DNA of 13,459 nt. Origin: a virus. Positions 1-13,459 of this stretch are shown piece by piece. A program made the position numbers and the translations under genes. Each line of letters starts with the position of its first letter. The stretch's first letter is position 1. The notes under the pieces were generated by a model, which saw only the letters and a program-made list of their open reading frames with translations, was not told the origin of the DNA and ran no database searches. The stretch is taken from the UHGV virus genome UHGV-0077154; one strand, 5' to 3'.

Positions 1-54
1 GAACGAGAGCTTCCCAAGCTCTATACGAGGGTTCGATTCCCTTCGCCCGCTCCA
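1..54 (+). tRNA. glyU: 3' 54 nt of tRNA-Gly (anticodon CCC); the 5' ~20 nt lie outside the window
   Basis: Sequence gaacgagagcttCCCaagctctatacgagggttcgattcccttcgcccgctcca matches from memory the 3' part of enterobacterial tRNA-Gly1: anticodon stem-loop AGAGC/TTCCCAA/GCTCT, T-arm GAGGG/TTCGATT/CCCTT, acceptor 3' strand CGCCCGC, discriminator T, CCA at 52-54. One extra matching base (g at position 1) compared with the right-hand copy suggests this is the genuine gene. Confidence 0.8.
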
Positions 55-85
55 GTCTCCTGATAAATCAACAAGTTATGATTTA
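2..85. repeat. attL: direct repeat, 60 bp perfect (2-61) plus 24 bp imperfect extension (62-85)
   Basis: 2-61 is identical to 13376-13435. The following 24 bp (62-85 vs 13436-13459) differ at only 3 positions, so 55-85 matches 13429-13459 at 28/31. Confidence 0.8.
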
Positions 86-621: not shown

Positions 622-1257
622 ATGGCTGAGTATCATCCTGCGGTATTTAATGCTGAGGCTTTTAACTGTCCTTACTGCGGTGTATATGCCCGTCAGTTCT
701 GGCGCAATTTGTTTGGTAGCGGAAATGCGTTGGCAACTGTTGCGACTGCGTTCCGTATGTCAACATGTTCTCATTGTGATGAAGATTCTTATTGGTATGA
801 GGGCAATATGATGGTCCCTGCTGCTGGAAATGTGGAACTACCTAGTCCTGACATGCCTGAAGACTGCAAGTTCGACTATATGGAAGCAAGAAGCATCGTT
901 AATCTGTCCCCTAAAGGTGCTGCTGCACTCCTTCGCCTGAGTCTGCAAAAACTGATGGTCCACCTTGGCGAACCGGGTAAACATATTGACACGGACATAA
1001 AATCTCTCGTGGCTAAAGGCTTGTCTCCGTTGGTCCAAAGAGCCGCAGATATTTGTCGCATTGTCGGTAATCAGGCTGTTCACCCCGGAGAAATTAATCT
1101 TGATGATGACCCGCAATTAGCACATGGCCTCTTCAAATTACTGAATATTATTGTCACGGAACAAATTACCAGACCCAAAGAGGTTGAAAAGATGTTCAAT
1201 AGTATGCCTGAAAGGGCGTTGAAGGGTATTGAAAACAGAGATAAACCTAAAACTTAA
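622..1257 (+). CDS. Zn-ribbon plus DUF4145-like domain protein (211 aa), possible defence/abortive-infection cargo
   Basis: ORF with two CxxC pairs at the N-terminus (CPYC, CSHC). The C-terminal half has the pattern [13 protein letters not shown]...[33 protein letters not shown], which I recall as the DUF4145 signature (R-x-GN-x-a-H). Weak SD (AAGG about 12 nt upstream). Followed by a hairpin at 1263-1276. Confidence 0.6.
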
Positions 1258-1282: not shown

Positions 1283-2101
1283 TTATTCAGAAAACCAAAT
1301 TTCTGGCCGTCTAAACTCCTTATTCTCAATAAAAAACAGAATATCTTTCCAGGCTTCTTCATTTTCTTCCCAGAATTTTTGTTTTTCATTCATTGTAAGG
1401 ACTTTACTATCATCTATTAACTTCTTGAGAATAGCAGGGATATCTTTATAGGGTTTTTTCCAGAAGGCATTACGTAATTCTTCAATTTCTGCATTTGCAT
1501 CCCGAACGGGTTTTAGAAGTTCAAGCTGTTTTTCTGTATCGGTAATAGGTTTATTTCCAACCCACTGATGATAGATTTTGCTAGCTTCTTCATGATGACC
1601 CCGAAGAATTGTTATTATTGTTTTTGAGAGTAACGAGCACATGTCAAAAGTAGTAAAGTAAAACCAATCGTGTTTGATTGCGGTTAATTCATCTTTTTTA
1701 ACCCCTATTTGTTCAAGTTCACTCGAAATTGAAGATACTAATTTATAAAGATCTTTGTTTGATGTTGCTGTATCTAGGCGTCCGGTTCTGGAGGCTAATG
1801 AAATAGCTACTTCAGAAATAGGTAAGGAAACTTTTCTTAAACTATCTAAAACTTTTTCAGCATCGTTAATAGTATCTCTTAATTTTGCCTCCATGCCTAA
1901 GAGCTTTATTTCATGCCATTCAAATTGAGTAAGTACCATCAACCCGAAGCCTGTTACAATGACAACAGTCCCTTCAGTTGCTCCTATTGTCAGAGTTACA
2001 ATTACACCAGCGCCTATAAGTAGCAATGCAATGAAAAACAAAAAATTCTTTATCCATTTATTTTTTAGCATATCACTGTCACCATTACGATTAAATTTCA
2101 T
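1283..2101 (-). CDS. Hypothetical membrane protein (272 aa, or 262 aa from the second Met), AT-rich cargo gene
   Basis: Long ORF in visibly AT-rich DNA. N-terminal hydrophobic stretch FLFFIALLLIGAGVIVTLTIGATEGTVVIVTGFGLMVL predicts 1-2 TM helices, followed by a charged, helical soluble domain. A GGTGA SD precedes the second Met (start about 2071). Confidence 0.65.
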   Translation of the reverse strand: MKFNRNGDSDMLKNKWIKNFLFFIALLLIGAGVIVTLTIGATEGTVVIVTGFGLMVLTQFEWHEIKLLGMEAKLRDTINDAEKVLDSLRKVSLPISEVAISLASRTGRLDTATSNKDLYKLVSSISSELEQIGVKKDELTAIKHDWFYFTTFDMCSLLSKTIITILRGHHEEASKIYHQWVGNKPITDTEKQLELLKPVRDANAEIEELRNAFWKKPYKDIPAILKKLIDDSKVLTMNEKQKFWEENEEAWKDILFFIENKEFRRPEIWFSE

Positions 2102-4468: not shown

Positions 4469-4897
4469 ATGGGGAAACCTGTTCTGTTCGATTTCTCGAG
4501 CGCCACTGCCTCAGAGATTGTCGCTGCAATCGATGCAAAAATTACCACAGCTCAAAATCTGCACGCCTTCCGCACTCGTATGGGTGGTGCCAAGAAAGCC
4601 GATAAGCTCTATCCAGCTACTCGCGAAGCACTGAACATCATTAAACGCCTGCGTCAGCAAGCGAAAGACGCAAAAATCATCCGGGATATTCTTAAACCGT
4701 ACTCAGCAGAGTTGGCAAAAGGCCGTGATGTTATGGAAATCATTGAACCAGTGCTGTCTGCCTGGCGTGTCTATTACGCCTCTCATGGCATTGGTTTGAT
4801 GAATGAGCAGATCCTCCTGTTGAAAATGATTGAGGCGGGCGGTGAACTCGAAGGTATTACCGGAAAACCCATTCCCGAACTGACCACAACCGAATAA
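4469..4897 (+). CDS. Hypothetical protein (142 aa), first gene of rightward operon
   Basis: Strong SD AGGAGA with a 5-nt spacer to ATG; no family recognised. Confidence 0.7.
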   Translation: MGKPVLFDFSSATASEIVAAIDAKITTAQNLHAFRTRMGGAKKADKLYPATREALNIIKRLRQQAKDAKIIRDILKPYSAELAKGRDVMEIIEPVLSAWRVYYASHGIGLMNEQILLLKMIEAGGELEGITGKPIPELTTTE

Positions 4898-5072
4898 CCA
4901 TTCTCTTCTTTACGGTGCGAAGCACTTTACCAGAGGTAAACACCTCCGGTGCTATTAGCTTTACTCTGTTGGCAGCAACGCCACCAAACGAAATCGCCGT
5001 AAACACGGCTCCTTACCCCTGATCAATTCCATGATCGCAGGGGCGCACCCGCATATCTAACGCACAGGAGAG

Positions 5073-5264
5073 ATGATTGTGAAACTGTCACTAGACGATG
5101 AAACATATGCAATTTTACGCGAAGAATCTGACCGTTTGGGGATGCCAGTTCCGAGGATGATCCGGAACATGTGCCAGAACCTGGCGAAACACATTCAGAA
5201 ACGCAATGAACAACCACTGACGAACCCACAGGGAGAACAACATGACAGAGACAGTAGAAGCTAA
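5073..5264 (+). CDS. Ribbon-helix-helix-like small DNA-binding protein (~61-63 aa)
   Basis: IVKLSLDDETYAILREESDRLGMPVPRMIRNM fits the beta-strand plus two-helix pattern of CopG/Arc/MetJ-type RHH proteins. GGAG lies 8 nt upstream of GTG at 5079, which may be the true start rather than ATG at 5073. Confidence 0.55.
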   Translation: MIVKLSLDDETYAILREESDRLGMPVPRMIRNMCQNLAKHIQKRNEQPLTNPQGEQHDRDSRS

Positions 5265-5886
5265 TCTGCCAGACGAACAGGACGGCACTTTTGATCGCAA
5301 TTATACCGAGATTAAGCGCTTGAAAGTGTTGGTTGCCGACGATGGAACTAAAATTCCGTTCAGCGCGAACATGAAAGTAGTCTACGCCTACCTCTACACC
5401 TTCCAGACAAATAAAGAGCGGCGGAACTACCCTGAGCCAATTTATCCTAATATGGAAATAATCGCGTGGGAAAATGGCATTACTAAACCCACGGCGCAAA
5501 AGGCTGTGGATGATTTGATGCGGGCGGGGGTGTTGATTAAGGACCAAATTCAGGTTGGGAGCGGGTTTAAGTCCAACAATTACGTTGTGTTGAAACCCTC
5601 GAAAGTGGTGGCGCGTGGCGTCACTCCACCGCATCCAAATGCTTCTAAATATTCAACTGCCGAGGAGAGCGGTAAGAATGAACAAAAACGTGCTGTGGTG
5701 GAACCTGCCGCGCCTGTTGCTGGAAAACCAGACGGCATACCTGTTGTGGATATTCCTGTCGATGCTGATGTACCTGCCGATGATGATGCGGTGATCGGAG
5801 ACTTTAGTGATCCTTACCTTGATGCTGAAGTAAAAGAATGGCAGAAACAAAAACATAGTGGAGGATTGAATTGTGTGAACACGTAA
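5242..5886 (+). CDS. Putative winged-helix-like DNA-binding protein with acidic C-terminal tail (214 aa); candidate iteron-binding initiator or regulator
   Basis: SD GGGAGAA 4-5 nt before ATG; overlaps the upstream gene by 23 nt. Segment MEIIAWENGITKPTAQKAVDDLMRAGVLIK resembles a wHTH; C-terminus is D/E/P-rich (DIPVDADVPADDDAVIGDF). Function is inferred only. Confidence 0.6.
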   Translation: MTETVEANLPDEQDGTFDRNYTEIKRLKVLVADDGTKIPFSANMKVVYAYLYTFQTNKERRNYPEPIYPNMEIIAWENGITKPTAQKAVDDLMRAGVLIKDQIQVGSGFKSNNYVVLKPSKVVARGVTPPHPNASKYSTAEESGKNEQKRAVVEPAAPVAGKPDGIPVVDIPVDADVPADDDAVIGDFSDPYLDAEVKEWQKQKHSGGLNCVNT

Positions 5887-6347
5887 GCGTTGAACTGACC
5901 GCAGATGAAGAACAAAAGCTATCTCGCCTTTTCTCCGTCCTGGAGAAACCGACATATAAATCCCGATCCAAACCTTCCGATCCGGAAACACAACGCAAAG
6001 CCCGTTTATTGCTTAATCGTGGATTTTCACCGCATATTGTCGCTAATACCCTAGATCTGCCGTTCGCTGAAGTCTGGCGGCTCGCACGTCAAAAACAAGC
6101 GGTGACCTGGGCGATGATGACACCGACAGCCCGGACAGAATTTGTCCGTGAAATGTGGTCACATCGGATGCACCCGGAACAGATCCGCAAGCGTTGCGAT
6201 GGTCTGTCATACGTCAGTCTGAGATATTACCTGCATAACGCCGGGATCACTGACGCTGAAATGTTGGGTTACTACCCAGACGTGTTCGTGAATATCTGCA
6301 AGCTGCCGACAGTGAAGAAGAAGCGCACTAAGTGTAAGGCCCGTTAG
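5871..6347 (+). CDS. Hypothetical basic protein with HTH-like segment (158 aa)
   Basis: TTG start 6 nt after GGAGG (5860-5864), overlapping the upstream gene end (coupled translation). KARLLLNRGFSPHIVANTLDLPFAEVWRLARQ is HTH-like; lysine-rich C-terminus. Could be a regulator or a small-terminase-like DNA-recognition protein; not resolved. Confidence 0.55.
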   Translation: MCEHVSVELTADEEQKLSRLFSVLEKPTYKSRSKPSDPETQRKARLLLNRGFSPHIVANTLDLPFAEVWRLARQKQAVTWAMMTPTARTEFVREMWSHRMHPEQIRKRCDGLSYVSLRYYLHNAGITDAEMLGYYPDVFVNICKLPTVKKKRTKCKAR

Positions 6348-6349
6348 GG

Positions 6350-6365
6350 TGAACGTTAACGTTCA
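6350..6365. promoter_or_regulatory. 16-bp perfect palindrome TGAACGTTAACGTTCA
   Basis: Exact self-complementary 16-mer immediately after the stop codon at 6347; shares the TGAAC/GTTCA half-site with the palindrome at 3986-4001. Confidence 0.4.
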
Positions 6366-6511
6366 TCACTTTGTGACCGGATCGCCAATCCAAATAATCC
6401 CACATCGGGAGCCAATGAACTTTGAAGCAATCCTTTCTTACCTGCCCGTTGTCTGGCTGGCGTATCGCTGCGTCCGTGATGGGCTGATCCTACTTTGGAG
6501 ACACCATAAAA

Positions 6512-6892
6512 ATGACATTGAACAGCATTAAAAATGCTCTGTTTGCCGCTATGCACGGCATGACACCGGAGGAATACGAACTCCAAAAGGCGCGGGACAA
6601 TCTCAAGAGCGTCACCGATAACTTTCTGGATCAACATCCGGAGTTGCTCAAATCAGCCTCGTCTGACACCCCCACGGATAAACGGGGCGAAGCCCTCTCG
6701 CCAATGCGAGACACCTTTGGTGCTGAACAACGGATTAAAAAATCTTTGGGCGCTGATAGCCGTCCGGCGGTAAGTCATACCGCTGATCACATCGATCCTG
6801 AAATGCTGGCGAAAGCTAAAGCAGCGGCTGCTGCTCTCGCAAAATCTGACCCTGATCGTTACGGCAATATCATCAAGCAGCAGGGGGTGTGA
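6512..6892 (+). CDS. Hypothetical protein (126 aa)
   Basis: ORF with GGAG about 11 nt upstream; its stop overlaps the start of the next gene (GTGATGA), suggesting translational coupling. Ala/Lys-rich C-terminus. Confidence 0.55.
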   Translation: MTLNSIKNALFAAMHGMTPEEYELQKARDNLKSVTDNFLDQHPELLKSASSDTPTDKRGEALSPMRDTFGAEQRIKKSLGADSRPAVSHTADHIDPEMLAKAKAAAAALAKSDPDRYGNIIKQQGV

Positions 6893-9036
6893 TGGCGAAT
6901 GGCAATATCATAGTGACTGAAACCGTAAACGAGGTGACATGGTCTGTCGATCGGACAGCCTTCGGTCGCGCCCTGAAAGCTGTTAAATCCATCAAGGCTG
7001 CTCATGAGAAACCAGCTAAGGCGCTTGAGAAGGCCCAGAAGCGGACCGTCCAGAGTGAAGGCAAAGCCGCACTAGCAGCAGCGAAAGCCCAGACAGCGAA
7101 GCTACGCCAGGCTGAACAATTGTCTAAACAGCAACAGAAACAAGCTCAGATACAAGCCAAAATGGAGCGGGACGCAGTAGCCCACGCCAATAAAATGACC
7201 TCATTACAGGCGCGTCAGTTATCCCAACAGGAACAGGCAGCACGTCAGAATGCCCGTTTAGCAGCAATATCTGAAAAGGTGAGACAGGCGAGTCGCTCCC
7301 GCGCGATGACCTACACCCCAAACATGGGCGGTCAACATTACGATCCTGGTCTTGTTTCCCGTCAGACTGACGCAATGAACCGTGGTCACGGCGCTGTTGC
7401 TGCCGACATCGCAGCCACCAAAAAGGCGATGGCCCTGGAGGAGAAGCGCCAGCGTGAGAAAGAGGCAGGACTTAAGCGTGAGGTGACTTATTACAACAGT
7501 TTGCGCCGTAGCGCTTTGACTCTGGCAAACGTGAACGGCGCTGACGTTGCAACCCGTTATAAAGCGATCAGTGCAGCAAAAGAGGCACTCAAAGCCCAGA
7601 AAGAAGAGCGTTATACGGTCGAAGAGACCCGTTTCGAAATGGCCCGTATCACTACAGAATTACGCAAGCAGGCTCGTCTGCAACAACGTATTACCCGTGA
7701 GCAGAAAGCCGCAGGTGTTCGTGCTGGTCGTGTACGCACAGAAAGCCGTGGTGGAAGTGTAGGTCTGGCTGCCGCTGGTGTTGTTGGTGGTGCGGCGTTA
7801 GTAGGTAGTATGGGCGTTTCTCGTGTTGGTCAGACCCTTCAGGGAAGCCTTGAGCGTTCTCGCGATGTGAAAAAACTCCAGCAGTATGGGATCAGCAACC
7901 TTGAGTTCGCAGCACTTCAGGATCTATCAATGAGCCGTGTTGGTTACTCACTGAGTGCTGACAAGCTGGCTGACCTCAACAAGGACACAACCGAAAAGGC
8001 CGGGGAATTGCTGAATACTGGCTCTTTCAAACGTAACAAGAAAACTGGACAGGTGAATTTCAGCGGCGGTGGTGAGTTTGCAGATATCATCAATAACGTA
8101 CTGACCTCCACCAACGGCAACCAGAAGGTAGCCCAAAAGGTGATCGGGGAACTGCAAAAACTGGATTTTCCAACATTTATCACTTATCTAAAGCAATTAC
8201 AGAAAACTTTCGGCTGGACTGATCGACAGGTGCGACACCTGGCCGAGGCTGTGAATGATGGTTCGGTCTTCCTCGAAGTGTTCAATGATGAGGGGCAGGG
8301 ACTTATCCAGCGTATGAATCAACTCGCTTCTGAAGGATGGACCCTATCTGATGCACAGCAGGCCAACCTTGATAAGCTGGCAGCTTTGGGTGCTGAGTAC
8401 AGTCGCGTGCAGATGTCGCTTGCTGACCACTTCAGCGCCAGCTTCGTGCAGGGTCTGGGAGAATATGCAGCTAATACTGACACTCTACGTCAGAAGATGA
8501 CTGGACTGATCCCAATTTCCGATGCTCTCGGCGTTGCCCTTGGTGAGCTAACCACCAACATTCTCTCCTTCGCTGGTCGAGTCGGTGAAGAACTCAAGAA
8601 AGGCGCGACACTGCCGGATGCAGTCTACAACACCGTAGTGGATGACTCTGCAAATAGCACCGCCGATTGGATTAAGGAAAAGACCGGATTTGATCCACGC
8701 AGCATCGGTCAGACGCTCAAACAGATTTACCCGTGGCTGGATAGTTTCGCTCCGAGCAATATCGGCTCAGGCACGGCGTATAACGATCCAGCGCTAGCGT
8801 TGAATGTTCCTGGTTTCAACTCAATACAACCCCAGCAACCAACGTTTACGATTCCGACAATTGACAGCATGACGCAGCGACAGCCGATTCCTGTTGCGGT
8901 CACTGGCGAAGCTGAGATTAAACTCTCACCGCTTGATATTAACGTGAATGACGGCGCTATTAACGGTTTGATTGATACAAAACTGAGGAGCTATGAGCAG
9001 GCACAGAACAACATGATCCTTGGTATTGCTCAATGA
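6889..9036 (+). CDS. Large coiled-coil protein with central Gly/Ala-rich hydrophobic segment (715 aa); tape-measure-like or scaffold-like structural protein
   Basis: N-terminal ~270 aa are A/K/Q/R-rich heptad-like repeats (KAQTAKLRQAEQLSKQQQKQAQIQAKMERD). Central segment GGSVGLAAAGVVGGAALVGSMGV is TM-like. Sits immediately upstream of the D/E-like capsid genes. ATG at 6892 is the more likely start (GGGGG 4 nt upstream). Assignment is by architecture only. Confidence 0.55.
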   Translation: MMANGNIIVTETVNEVTWSVDRTAFGRALKAVKSIKAAHEKPAKALEKAQKRTVQSEGKAALAAAKAQTAKLRQAEQLSKQQQKQAQIQAKMERDAVAHANKMTSLQARQLSQQEQAARQNARLAAISEKVRQASRSRAMTYTPNMGGQHYDPGLVSRQTDAMNRGHGAVAADIAATKKAMALEEKRQREKEAGLKREVTYYNSLRRSALTLANVNGADVATRYKAISAAKEALKAQKEERYTVEETRFEMARITTELRKQARLQQRITREQKAAGVRAGRVRTESRGGSVGLAAAGVVGGAALVGSMGVSRVGQTLQGSLERSRDVKKLQQYGISNLEFAALQDLSMSRVGYSLSADKLADLNKDTTEKAGELLNTGSFKRNKKTGQVNFSGGGEFADIINNVLTSTNGNQKVAQKVIGELQKLDFPTFITYLKQLQKTFGWTDRQVRHLAEAVNDGSVFLEVFNDEGQGLIQRMNQLASEGWTLSDAQQANLDKLAALGAEYSRVQMSLADHFSASFVQGLGEYAANTDTLRQKMTGLIPISDALGVALGELTTNILSFAGRVGEELKKGATLPDAVYNTVVDDSANSTADWIKEKTGFDPRSIGQTLKQIYPWLDSFAPSNIGSGTAYNDPALALNVPGFNSIQPQQPTFTIPTIDSMTQRQPIPVAVTGEAEIKLSPLDINVNDGAINGLIDTKLRSYEQAQNNMILGIAQ

Positions 9037-10005: not shown

Positions 10006-11040
10006 ATGGGACTATCAACCAATTTCAGCTACGCGGATTACACCAACACCTTTGTGAACATGGATGCAAAGAACACTTTGCTGTCCACGCTTAATGTTTT
10101 CAGTGATCGTCAGACTTCTGCAAGTCCGAAGGTGAGCCTCGATATCATTGATGAAGTCGCTCAGAAGGTGGCAAGCTCTGTTAATCGTTACGGTTCAGAG
10201 TGGTCAACCATTCCTAAGCGTAGCGCTAGCAATCACCTGATTGAAGCTCCACTTTATGCTTTTCAAGACCGGATTACAGCGGCAGACGTGCAACCATATC
10301 GCAAACCAGGCTCCGACCTGCAAATGTCTGTAATGGATGCGGTCACTTCTTCTGCTGTCGCAATGCACGATAAGTACATGCGTACTAAAGAGAAAATTTT
10401 CGCTGACGCACTCTTCCGAAATACTGTCGAAGCGACCTACACCCAGCAGCCGATCATTTCCTGGGAAGATGAATTTGGATACCAACAGGCAACCGGAACG
10501 ATCAAAACCAGCGTTAGCTCTGGTGACCCACTTCGCAGCCTCGATGATGCAGTAACCGCTGCTAAAGTGCGCATGGGGGGCCTGGCTGGTCAGCTTGATG
10601 GATTTATCCTGTTTGCAGGTAGCAATGTTTATCGCGGCATTAAGTATCACCCTGATGTTCGTCAGAATGTTCAGTTCGGTGTGCTTGATCGGGATGTTCT
10701 GTTTAATAAAGAAGTGCTTCCGGCATTCTCAACATTCATCATTGAAAATGTTCGAGTGGTGGAGGTCACGGATCAGGCACTTTACGGAATTGGTCCGGAT
10801 GAATCCTTCCTGGTTCCACGTTTCAGCCGCCCACTGTCCTCTGATATTGCTCTACCTTTCGGTTATGTAGCAACGGCTACCAGCCGCAATCTTGATCTGG
10901 CATTTGCTGATCCGGTTGATTTCCGTATCTGGAGCGTACAGGACAAGTTTAAGAACGTGGAGCTATTCGCGGAAAGCTCAATCTTGCCTGTGGTGTACCG
11001 TCCGGATTTCGTTACAAAACTGACGAACGACGCAGCGTAA
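10006..11040 (+). CDS. Major capsid protein, lambda gpE-like family (344 aa)
   Basis: Strong SD AAGGAGAAG. Length 344 aa vs 341 for lambda E. C-terminal region ...VVYRPDFVTKLT resembles lambda E ...LADPDEFVSVQLA. Gene order decoration-then-capsid as in lambda. A hairpin at 11053-11074 (TGGGGC-N10-GCCCCA) follows the stop. Confidence 0.6.
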   Translation: MGLSTNFSYADYTNTFVNMDAKNTLLSTLNVFSDRQTSASPKVSLDIIDEVAQKVASSVNRYGSEWSTIPKRSASNHLIEAPLYAFQDRITAADVQPYRKPGSDLQMSVMDAVTSSAVAMHDKYMRTKEKIFADALFRNTVEATYTQQPIISWEDEFGYQQATGTIKTSVSSGDPLRSLDDAVTAAKVRMGGLAGQLDGFILFAGSNVYRGIKYHPDVRQNVQFGVLDRDVLFNKEVLPAFSTFIIENVRVVEVTDQALYGIGPDESFLVPRFSRPLSSDIALPFGYVATATSRNLDLAFADPVDFRIWSVQDKFKNVELFAESSILPVVYRPDFVTKLTNDAA

Positions 11041-11325: not shown

Positions 11326-11379
11326 TAATCAATCTGTTGGTATTTGTTGTCAAAAGAATCATTGTGTTTGTTTTTCGCG

Positions 11380-11450
11380 CATTTACTTGACACTATGATG
11401 CAGATTGCGTAGGCTGAACATAAAATAATTGACTATTCTATATTCAAACC
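11380..11450 (+). promoter_or_regulatory. Putative promoter region for the small AT-rich cassette
   Basis: TTGACA at 11387-11392 with a weak -10 (TAGGCT, 17-bp spacer); AT-rich surroundings; precedes a strong SD at 11499-11504. Confidence 0.3.
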
Positions 11451-11509
11451 GGACTTCAACTTGAGAATGCTTCGTTCCTACATCTCCCTTCAAGGGGTAG
11501 GAGGATTAT

Positions 11510-11719
11510 ATGAACTTTGATATGCGTACAAACCAAAATTGTGCATCTTTTTTTAACCCAGCAACCAAGGCGTTTGTCGTCGTCGATTCGTTTGACAACT
11601 ACGAGTTCGATGTTCGTGCTGGTACTTTATCACGCACTGAATTTGTAGGCACAATCACAGCTTCGAACGATGAAGAGTTGAACAAGAAATTAGCTGAGAT
11701 CACGGCTGCTCATATATGA
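11510..11719 (+). CDS. Hypothetical small protein (69 aa), cargo cassette gene 1
   Basis: Excellent SD AGGAGG with a 5-nt spacer; AT-rich codon usage; stop overlaps the next start (ATGA). Confidence 0.65.
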   Translation: MNFDMRTNQNCASFFNPATKAFVVVDSFDNYEFDVRAGTLSRTEFVGTITASNDEELNKKLAEITAAHI

Positions 11720-12090
11720 TAACTCAACAGCAAATTGATGATTTAGTTGCAGATATTAACGATATCTTAGAAGAAGATAGAGCTAGACTGAAGATGTCAT
11801 TTCATTTTGCTGTTGATAGACTCAATGATCAGCGTAACAAACCTCCAATCACGCTAGATGAATTGAGAGTGATTTTTACAAATTTCATTGAACAACACTT
11901 GCAGACCATTTTAGGCAAAGATGAGGGGTTCTCCTTCACTATTAAGTGCCAGAAATCAGGTATTGCTATACCTTGCGCCATAGAGCATGAACTTGAGATT
12001 GGTGCAACGTGGGTAGTACAGCAAGTGATCACCATCATGCGGAATCCGAACTTTAACCCATACCATGGTGATGTCATCTTCGAAATCTAA
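11716..12090 (+). CDS. Hypothetical protein (124 aa), cargo cassette gene 2
   Basis: Translationally coupled to the upstream ORF; AT-rich; followed immediately by a strong intrinsic terminator. Confidence 0.65.
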   Translation: MITQQQIDDLVADINDILEEDRARLKMSFHFAVDRLNDQRNKPPITLDELRVIFTNFIEQHLQTILGKDEGFSFTIKCQKSGIAIPCAIEHELEIGATWVVQQVITIMRNPNFNPYHGDVIFEI

Positions 12091-12092
12091 GT

Positions 12093-12118
12093 AAAAAGGC
12101 GCAATAGCGCCTTTTTTT
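12093..12118. terminator. Bidirectional rho-independent terminator (AAAAAGGCGC-AATA-GCGCCTTTTTTT)
   Basis: Perfect GGCGC/GCGCC stem with a 4-nt loop, flanked by an A-run and a T-run; sits between the convergent cassette gene 2 and integrase 3' ends. Confidence 0.8.
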
Positions 12119-13313
12119 ACAAATCCGGATAACACGCCAACTCGACATACTCCGATAGTTCCTTCATCCCTGGCCCTTTGCTGTAGGTTCTGAATGCTTC
12201 GGTTTTCGCTTTTTGTTCGGTATGTCCAGTGATGGCTCCGATCCGTTGTTCTGGCACCCCTGCACGGTCTAAGCAGGTGATGAACATTCCCCGTAAGCTG
12301 TGAAAACATTGCCGATCTGTAGCGGTTGGCAATGTGCTGTCACGTAGCCGGGTAAACTTTTGGCTGTACCACGGACCCCGCTTACCATCCTTCCGAATGA
12401 TGTTATTAGACTGAGCCAGAAGATATTCACCGCTGTTATTTGCCAGATGCTTATCAACAATCCCCATCAGCAGCGAGTGGATCGGAACATACCGCACCCC
12501 GGCTACAGTCTTGGACTTGCTGACAAAGAAACATCTGACACCCTCCAACATTACAATTTCATCCCGCTTGATGCTGGCGATCTCATCAAGTCGCATTCCT
12601 GAATACAGCCCAATCAGTATGACATCGCGTAGAACGTCATCCGCTTCTCTGACAAGTGTTTGCAATTGTTCAGGTTCAAACGGCTGATAACTTTCTATCG
12701 TGCGACGTGCTTCGAGGTTATGACCGTGAAACGGGTTACTGTCGGGGATTGCGTCATATCGACGTTTGGCGAACTCGTACAGACTCCCTAAAGAGGTTAG
12801 CCAGTTTTGCACGGTCTGCGGTGCTGCCTTTTTCTGTTGGCCTTCAATGAAGTCTGTAACCGTTCTGCGTCCTATCTTGTTCAGACTAATATCAACTTTA
12901 CCGATACTCTGGAGAAATACTTCCACCGCTCGCGCGGATTTGCTGAGTGTGGAAAATGCCCGACGTTCACTATAAACCGTCATGTATTCATCACGGATGA
13001 CTGCCAACGTTGGGATAGGGGAGACTGCTACAGGCGTACTCTTGGCCTGTTTGATTGTGGTGTGGAGTGTGGTGATCGCATTCTGGATGCGAATGTCTTC
13101 CCGATCAGGATTCAACAGGGCTTTCAGATTGTTGAACTCAATCAACATGTGATTTCTGAAGTGACGAGCCTTAAGGATGTCTTTTGTCCCGGTGGATTTT
13201 CGCCAGGCTCGTTTGTTGTCAAACAGGTGACGCATGTACGCAGGTACAAAGACCTGAAAGATCCATACGCCCGAATGACTTTGAAAAAGATACTGATTGT
13301 TCTTGATAGACAT
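12117..13313 (-). CDS. int: Tyrosine recombinase / phage-type integrase (398 aa)
   Basis: C-terminal catalytic motifs: GMRLDEI (Arg box I), HSLRGMFITCLDRAGVPEQRIGAITGH (H-x-x-R box II), FRTYSKG (catalytic Tyr). SD AGAGGA about 8 nt upstream of ATG; gene lies next to attR. Confidence 0.9.
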   Translation of the reverse strand: MSIKNNQYLFQSHSGVWIFQVFVPAYMRHLFDNKRAWRKSTGTKDILKARHFRNHMLIEFNNLKALLNPDREDIRIQNAITTLHTTIKQAKSTPVAVSPIPTLAVIRDEYMTVYSERRAFSTLSKSARAVEVFLQSIGKVDISLNKIGRRTVTDFIEGQQKKAAPQTVQNWLTSLGSLYEFAKRRYDAIPDSNPFHGHNLEARRTIESYQPFEPEQLQTLVREADDVLRDVILIGLYSGMRLDEIASIKRDEIVMLEGVRCFFVSKSKTVAGVRYVPIHSLLMGIVDKHLANNSGEYLLAQSNNIIRKDGKRGPWYSQKFTRLRDSTLPTATDRQCFHSLRGMFITCLDRAGVPEQRIGAITGHTEQKAKTEAFRTYSKGPGMKELSEYVELACYPDL

Positions 13314-13375: not shown

Positions 13376-13459
13376 AACGAGAGCTTCCCAAGCTCTATAC
13401 GAGGGTTCGATTCCCTTCGCCCGCTCCAGTCTCCTCATAAATTAACAAGTTATAATTTA
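13376..13459. repeat. attR: partial tRNA-Gly 3' copy (60 bp perfect to 13435) plus imperfect extension to the window end
   Basis: Identical to 2-61; the sequence upstream (caatgtcgggatggagt) does not match the tRNA 5' half, so this is the truncated copy. Confidence 0.8.

Follow-up and report, generated by a model that had tools for sequence, protein, structure and literature searches.

The two-gene cassette beside the integrase of a satellite-like viral island corresponds to the KreTA toxin-antitoxin system

Introduction

What is encoded by an AT-rich pair of small genes that lies between the capsid genes and the integrase gene of a viral genome? We addressed this question for UHGV virus genome UHGV-0077154, a 13,459-nt stretch of DNA that we call the window. 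The initial annotation, made from the sequence, had described the pair as a candidate novel defence, toxin-antitoxin or anti-helper module in a P4-like satellite. Here we examine what the pair is, how it is exchanged between islands, how its toxin relates to known nucleases and what role it is likely to have.

Results

Identity and layout of the cassette

The two open reading frames (ORFs) are exactly as the initial annotation had described them (Table 1), and the stop and start codons of kreA and kreT overlap in the sequence ATGA, also as described. The near-consensus Shine-Dalgarno (SD) sequence noted ahead of kreA is present, in consensus form, and is also conserved in the alignment with an E. 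coli copy (L001). Since kreT has no SD of its own, its translation is probably coupled to that of kreA. An SD-sequestering structure in the 5′ UTR was considered and rejected, as the fold is no better than that of shuffled sequence (z +1.03).

Downstream of kreT, a hairpin of the form GGCGC-loop-GCGCC lies between an A-run and a T-run and ends 1 nt from the stop codon of the convergent integrase gene. The claim of a strong bidirectional terminator is borne out by folding energies of -14.4 kcal/mol on the + strand and -15.5 kcal/mol on the - strand (z -3.8 and -4.8, respectively, against shuffles). The lower GC content reported for the cassette is real (0.400 versus 0.472 for the remaining island) but only moderate, as it falls at the 9.5th percentile of stretches of the same size; GC is even lower at 1283-2101 (0.339). 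Comparison with the kreA copy of an island with a different backbone (L005) revealed 8 synonymous and 0 non-synonymous codon differences, while kreT and a copy in a different island backbone differ by 21 synonymous and 10 non-synonymous codons. Both ORFs are real genes under purifying selection.

Table 1. Features of the window (positions are those of the 13,459-nt stretch)
Feature	Position	Strand	Remarks
Left end, with 3′ part of a tRNA gene (1-51)	1-85	+	Rfam tRNA, model positions 21-71, cut at its 5′ side
Left copy of 84-bp direct repeat, presumed attL	2-85	+	96.4% identical to 13376-13459
PD-T7-4, validated defence protein	622-1257		PADLOC, 4e-98
Replication-initiator-like protein	5242-5886
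Major capsid protein, lambda-E-type (Phage_cap_E)	10006-11040		Pfam
Promoter-like block	11386-11431	+	-35 TTGACA at 11387-11392, 17-nt spacer, -10-like TAGGCT at 11410-11415
SD sequence of kreA, AGGAGG	11499-11504	+	5 nt before the ATG; read from the sequence
kreA	11510-11719	+	Antitoxin, 69 aa, acidic (pI 4.64)
kreT	11716-12090	+	Toxin, 124 aa, RegB-fold putative endoribonuclease
Intrinsic terminator hairpin, bidirectional	12093-12116	both	Common to kreAT and the convergent integrase gene
Tyrosine integrase, 398 aa	12117-13313	-	Pfam Phage_integrase and DUF6538; phrog_1
Right copy of 84-bp direct repeat, presumed attR	13376-13459	+	95% match to the L002 tRNA-Gly region

A toxin, KreT (WP_000632671.1), and its antitoxin, KreA (WP_001008346.1), were named in a study published in October 2025 that describes them as a type II toxin-antitoxin system (Sci Adv 2025;11(40):eadz8560; PMC12487901). 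In E. coli BW25113, KreT was toxic, its toxicity was neutralised by KreA and it selectively blocked incorporation of 3H-methionine, while an AlphaFold prediction of the heterodimer placed KreA over a putative RNase site (PMC12487901). Neither protein had sequence relatives in those authors' viral database. They label the genomic context "prophage", and the legend of their Figure 6A lists an integrase, a major capsid protein and a "tape measure protein" (PMC12487901).

The 69-aa protein of the window is identical to the tested KreA at 69 of 69 positions. The 124-aa protein matches the tested KreT at 114 of 124 positions (92%), and all ten substitutions fall outside the positions that are invariant in the family. 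We connected the accessions to the E. coli copy L001 through its annotation and to the paper by accession match. The window pair is bicistronic in the order kreA-kreT, with the ATGA overlap and a convergent integrase gene, and the same arrangement occurs in all close homologues. Judged by these matches, the cassette is kreA-kreT, a system already described, and the novelty first proposed for it does not stand. Among the three options offered, however, toxin-antitoxin was the right one: toxicity, neutralisation and a selective block of translation have been demonstrated by others for a KreA that is 100% identical and a KreT that is 92% identical. No follow-up paper on KreTA was found in the literature searched.

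General searches did not reveal this identity. Neither protein was assigned to a family by Pfam (to E 10), NCBIfam or PADLOC; a cassette that looked dark to all three can now be annotated as kreAT. Within PADLOC-DB v2.0.0, KreA had no match and KreT matched only spbK at chance level (E 0.015 over 21 residues), and a profile search of PDB sequences returned chance matches only. The proteins fall in two PHROG families of unknown function (KreA in phrog_14630, 3.6e-39). Close relatives are scarce: of the 5.8 billion clusters searched, 6 contain relatives of the 124-aa protein and 12 contain relatives of the 69-aa protein. Searching phage records with the DNA sequence was negative, and the pair was detected only at the protein level. 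An early idea that KreT is a DUF4258-type toxin and KreA is HicB-like was dropped, as neither had a Pfam match and RegB was preferred for KreT. The AlphaFold2 model of KreA (pLDDT 92.7) has four beta-strands and a C-terminal helix; this predicted fold, that of a small immunity-like beta/alpha protein, agrees with the assignment to KreTA.

The island and its cargo slot

The window is one complete mobile element of 13.3 kb that is tRNA-integrated, capsid-encoding and satellite-like. Its left end resembles the tRNA-Gly region of L002, and related E. coli loci adjoin tRNA-Gly. In addition to the genes in Table 1, it encodes a 715-aa protein with weak matches to tape-measure PHROGs. The P4-like label of the initial annotation had to be abandoned. 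Homologues of Psu, Sid, delta and alpha were not found among the island ORFs with Pfam or PHROG, and a search for C4/CI RNA with Rfam over the island gave only the tRNA fragment; in place of P4 core genes, the island has its own lambda-E-type capsid and a replication-initiator-like protein.

The region upstream of kreA had been taken for a promoter specific to the cassette. The promoter-like block there runs TTGACA, 17 nt, TAGGCT and then ACATAAAA, with homology ending right after. By alignment, the block is common to L001, which has another backbone and the same cargo, and to L002 and L003, which have other cargo. As it is 88-96% identical in islands with different cargo, it belongs to the shared slot rather than to the cassette. 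The block scores 9/12 but misses the -10 requirement of our scan (at least 4 of 6 matches), and we treat it as a putative promoter.

Comparison of islands placed the cargo junction at ~11431-11435, since homology to L002 stops at 11431 and homology to L003 at 11434. L003 and L004, which have the same backbone as the window, both lose homology at 11434 and carry a 52-aa gene and a GNAT-like gene beside an integrase that is 40% identical (40.5%, protein). L002 has the flanks on either side (95.6% upstream; integrase protein 65%) but a different pair between them, encoding 58 and 155 aa. The cargo proteins of L002 and L003 had no PADLOC match, and of these proteins only the larger one of L003 matched Pfam, as a weak GNAT. 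Conversely, L001 and L005, islands of unrelated backbone, have the stretch 11396-12818 in common with the window. The window integrase shares only 58-65% identity with those encoded next to other copies of kreAT. That kreA DNA is 96% identical between backbones whose integrases share 63% of their protein sequence argues for recent exchange of the cassette. Among 5,426 complete E. coli genomes, one contains kreAT, while 24 others have only the ~100 nt upstream.

Together, these comparisons support the proposal of a variable slot: other two-gene cargo occupies it in islands that have the backbone of the window or its upstream block. The kreAT pair is one of several interchangeable two-gene cargoes of the integrase-proximal slot. 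Capsid-encoding islands that are not P4-like have a slot next to int, behind a conserved promoter-like block, where either kreAT or another, uncharacterised two-gene cassette is found.

The same data bear on whether both proteins are structural or assembly parts of the capsid module, as their location directly downstream of the capsid gene cluster and on the same strand could suggest. The initial annotation had itself raised the case of structural genes conserved in all related islands, and the island comparison revealed no such conservation. Twenty-four E. coli islands with the upstream block lack the genes, some of these islands having the same capsid module, and the genes are present in islands without the capsid module of the window. 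Moreover, the pair has been validated as a toxin-antitoxin system (PMC12487901). The structural reading is refuted by these comparative data, and we give it practically no weight.

Relationship of KreT to RegB

To characterize the toxin, we compared its predicted structure and its family alignment with those of known nucleases. A Foldseek search of viral models with the KreT model found a true homologue of RegB (E 1.6e-5, TM 0.63-0.69). The best KreT model has a pLDDT of 73.7 and a pTM of 0.72, the other four having pLDDTs of 40-61, and the input alignment contained 6 sequences. An exhaustive profile search recovered 368 representative clusters (50% identity) with a KreT-like domain of ~115 aa. 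Alignment of 133 domains revealed that H30, F31, R35, N37, D38, R40, N41, E49, P86, T106, M108, R109 and F113 are invariant. When this family alignment was compared with that of RegB using hhalign (P 1.2e-4, probability only 56%), KreT H30 fell on RegB H48 and D34-R35 on D51-R52, while RegB H68 aligned with KreT T55, a position that is K in most of the KreT family. H48 and H68 are the two catalytic histidines of RegB (PMC3014915), and H48 is the residue mutated in PDB entry 2hx6. Thus, two methods and a profile alignment assign KreT a predicted RegB-like fold; its RNase chemistry and target are putative.

KreT and RegB also differ. The Pfam domain PF10715 (REGB_T4), which all true RegB homologues carry, was detected neither in KreT, at a cutoff as loose as E 10, nor in any of 58 fused relatives of the KreT domain. 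KreT has a pI of 4.81 and a net charge of -8, as compared with a pI of 8.57 for RegB and a median of 9.3 for the fused KreT-like domains. Three positions that are near-invariant in the wider family are changed in the close KreT clade (N84A, K105I and K110N). The acidity of KreT, the alignment of H68 with T55, these three substitutions, the moderate confidence of the model and the missing PF10715 match are points against reading KreT as a RegB-fold nuclease.

A toxin that acts without catalysis, bound to the ribosome or to a translation factor after partial loss of an ancestral RNase site, would account for the acidic protein, the absence of an H68 equivalent and the changes at near-invariant positions, and the published data are of translation inhibition, not cleavage (PMC12487901). 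However, H30, D34, R35, N37, D38, R40, N41, T106 and R109 vary little or not at all across the paired clade and the wider family, as expected for an active site that has been maintained. In addition, C78 is invariant in the paired clade and H91, H117 and Y116 in the close clade, and these residues could complete the active site. We consider non-catalytic toxicity unlikely and favour a RegB-fold endoribonuclease.

Pairing of KreA and KreT

We determined how often the two genes occur together. In genomes, metagenomes and phage records, all 27 examined loci with a KreT relative of at least 31-33% identity had an adjacent KreA. A scan of IMG/VR for KreT gave an adjacent KreA at all 36 such loci, on contigs of 5-61 kb. 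A single locus (L028) retains kreA in an inverted, convergent orientation. Pairing is therefore obligate among the examined relatives at this level of identity. The KreA homologues are without exception acidic (pI 4.1-4.8).

More distant domains lack the antitoxin. KreA was found within ±5 kb of none of 44 KreT-like domains with at most 35% identity in IMG/VR, and it was also absent beside the KreT-like domains of Sinorhizobium phage ΦM12, Methylophilales phage Melnitz and one metagenomic contig. The 47 domains without KreA that we examined all come from large lytic phages or from metagenomic viral contigs, several of which are 100-242 kb long, and most distant domains form part of longer proteins, the longest of 1,304 aa. 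Pfam assigned the partners in the 58 fused proteins to Cytidylyltransferase-like (15), DUF5824 (11), Zeta_toxin (7), AAA_33 (6) and InPase (1). The KreT domain is thus part of a much larger family and is often fused, without KreA, to enzymes that process RNA ends or nucleotides. In large lytic phages, the domain may function alone or fused to a nucleotidyltransferase or P-loop kinase, with no antidote needed.

KreT could instead be an expression switch of the satellite or prophage, acting for example on early mRNAs of helper or host after induction, with KreA as its timing regulator. In favour of this, the closest characterised fold is that of RegB, which shuts off T4 early mRNAs, and the related domain occurs without KreA near replication genes in large lytic myoviruses. 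Several observations argue against this. The pair shows classical toxin-antitoxin behaviour in an uninfected host, islands of the same backbone can do without this cargo and carry other genes in its place, and the pair is found in backbones that are unrelated as well as in temperate phages of different lifestyles. Such a switch is improbable in our judgement.

KreA in jumbo phages

A KreA homologue (48-58% identical) is encoded by the Erwinia jumbo phage Kaldavass (366 kb) and by two IMG/VR contigs (355-358 kb). In Kaldavass (PQ464595), the homologue is at 320271-320483. The three loci are syntenic and lie downstream of a PhoH-like gene. Scanning ±4-5 kb around KreA in each of the three revealed no KreT-like domain, and two whole-genome tblastn queries of Kaldavass found none. 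A candidate KreT-like domain in the "nucleotidyltransferase" encoded two genes downstream of this KreA was rejected (hhalign probability 0.2%). By analogy with phage antitoxins that counter toxin-antitoxin defence, a solo KreA is the pattern expected of an antitoxin decoy or counter-defence gene. If that is its function, it predicts that KreTA restricts phage.

Discussion

The explanation that accommodates our data, and in which we have high confidence, is that the cassette is a type II toxin-antitoxin operon, kreA-kreT, with a RegB-fold toxin that KreA neutralises, carried as swappable cargo of a satellite-like island. The promoter-like block of the slot would drive transcription of both genes, and kreT would be translated through coupling to kreA at the ATGA overlap. 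Because of this coupling and the lack of an SD for kreT, toxin would not be made without antitoxin, and KreA would be made in amounts at least equal to those of KreT. KreT alone would arrest translation, most likely by cutting RNA, with H30 and D34-R35 serving as the equivalent of the RegB catalytic residues His48 and Asp51-Arg52. KreA would bind KreT and cover its predicted active site, presumably in the manner of the modelled complex, and so neutralise it.

The most likely role is phage defence of the abortive-infection type and/or stabilisation of the element. We favour such a role because the slot resembles a defence hotspot, the island also contains PD-T7-4 and lytic jumbo phages encode KreA alone; anti-phage defence by KreTA is plausible. 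Addiction is the classical role of type II toxin-antitoxin systems, and stabilisation of the island by post-segregational or post-excision killing could be the sole function of KreTA, with no anti-phage activity. The pair is directly beside the integrase in every island examined, PADLOC has no match and there is no published defence phenotype, all of which fit addiction. Yet related islands carry other cargo at this position, as is the case in known defence hotspots of phages and satellites (PMC9122126), and PD-T7-4 is a validated defence gene of the same island. Retention of KreA without a nearby KreT in three syntenic lytic jumbo phages also argues against addiction alone, as it is hard to explain unless these phages meet KreT during infection. 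We regard a purely stabilising role as possible but doubtful.

A broader proposal, which we put forward tentatively, is that KreTA is abortive-infection cargo whose toxin shares its lineage with RegB-type mRNA shut-off nucleases of large lytic phages and that jumbo phages of ~355-366 kb captured KreA as a decoy. If true, KreA would be the first naturally occurring protein to inhibit a nuclease of the RegB fold, with a bearing on the "anti-RegB partner" question posed for T4 (PMC3014915).

How does this cassette compare with known systems? It shares with the published KreTA (PMC12487901) the gene order, the 4-nt overlap and a neighbourhood of integrase, capsid and "tape measure" genes. It differs in that the window KreT is a 92% variant in another island backbone, the tested E. 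coli copy being in an L001-type backbone with a DEAD helicase, HNH and Endonuclease_7. Its context is also different from the "prophage" of that study: a 13.3-kb satellite-like island in which the pair is swappable cargo.

T4 RegB (PDB 2hx6; Pfam PF10715) acts alone in a lytic phage, and its cleavage of mRNA is GGAG-specific and stimulated by S1, whereas KreT has a dedicated antitoxin, has no match to the RegB Pfam family and no equivalent of H68, is acidic and is 29 aa shorter. The ribosome-dependent mRNA interferases RelE, YoeB, HigB and YafQ have no sequence similarity to KreT, which, unlike RelE-type toxins, carries an extra N-terminal helix, as does RegB. In KreA, no DNA-binding domain can be recognised, and the protein does not resemble RelB, YefM or HigA.

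Phage antitoxins that counter toxin-antitoxin defence include T4 Dmd, which acts against RnlAB and LsoAB, and an ICP1 mimic that acts against DarTG (PMC8266594, PMC11481870). The solo KreA of jumbo phages would fit the pattern of RnlAB-Dmd and DarTG-ICP1, a likeness drawn by analogy only.

Finally, P4-like satellites have an integrase-proximal defence hotspot (Rousset et al. 2022; PMC9122126). The likeness lies in variable small-system cargo beside int in a small integrative phage-related element. The island of the window differs from P4-like satellites in that it lacks P4 core genes and has its own lambda-E-type capsid gene. Compared with the P4-like hotspot, its cargo is swapped directly downstream of a conserved promoter-like block, and in some island comparisons cargo and integrase change together.

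Cargo loci of the island and its relatives

In related islands, the slot beside the integrase that holds kreA-kreT in the window carries other two-gene cargo (Table). The small-then-larger gene order of these cargoes is the layout of toxin-antitoxin-like modules. PADLOC, a library of anti-phage defence-system models, gave no match for either cargo, and the L002 pair had no family matches. Islands of differing backbone and cargo share a conserved promoter-like block, 17-nt spacer included, and homology between them ends directly 3′ of it. This pattern suggests that the block could be a common cargo promoter, possibly regulated, or a recombination junction.

At the opposite end of the island, we found the validated defence gene PD-T7-4. 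The adjoining 272-aa ORF lies in the window's most AT-rich part (GC 0.339) and had no match in Pfam, PHROGs, NCBIfam or PADLOC. The island may have a further locus for cargo or defence here. Annotations elsewhere call the 715-aa protein a tape measure protein, and its PHROG tape-measure matches are weak. As this 13-kb island has no other recognisable tail genes, we consider that role putative.

Features of the window and of related loci
Feature	Locus	Coordinates	Strand	Remarks
PD-T7-4	window	622-1257	+	match at 4e-98
272-aa ORF	window	1283-2101	-	convergent with PD-T7-4
715-aa protein	window	6889-9036		
Promoter-like block	window	11386-11431		
kreA Shine-Dalgarno	window	11499-11504		
52-aa gene + 192-aa gene	L003/L004, related islands	6156-6923		same slot; 192-aa: weak GNAT acetyltransferase match
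58-aa + 155-aa genes	L002, related island	6146-6746		same slot
kreA-like gene + kreT	L028, distant homologue	4835-5435	kreA-like gene opposite to kreT	convergent
KreT-like domain protein	L033	1040-2848		Sinorhizobium phage phiM12 gp159, 602 aa
KreT-like domain protein	L034	2405-2854		Melnitz, 149 aa
KreA homologue	L029	4001-4213		Erwinia phage Kaldavass PQ464595
KreA homologue	L057 and L059	each about 4992-5201		IMG/VR contigs, 355-358 kb

KreA and KreT homologues together and apart

In the distant homologue L028, the kreA-like gene overlaps the 3′ end of kreT from the other strand; the operon structure is gone, and the kreA-kreT partnership is retained. Three syntenic jumbo-phage genomes (74-83% nucleotide identity) encode KreA homologues (48-58% identity), in each case with a PhoH-like gene upstream. 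No KreT-like domain was found within ±4-5 kb of these genes or, by two tblastn queries, anywhere in Kaldavass. These jumbo-phage KreA homologues are candidates for an antitoxin decoy encoded by phages.

Large lytic phages and metagenomic viral contigs widely carry a KreT-like domain of a basic type (L033, L034, L101-L144), with no KreA nearby at any of these loci. This domain is often an N- or C-terminal module within proteins of 200-1,300 aa, fused to cytidylyltransferase-like, Zeta/AAA_33 kinase, DUF5824 or InPase domains. These proteins could be analogous to RegB, or they could be enzymes that process RNA ends.

The kreA 5′ UTR showed no significant secondary structure (z +1.03). Its Shine-Dalgarno contains GGAG, the cleavage motif of RegB, the phage T4 mRNA endoribonuclease whose fold KreT resembles. 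T4 RegB cuts its own Shine-Dalgarno, and it is pure speculation that KreT might likewise autoregulate by Shine-Dalgarno cleavage.
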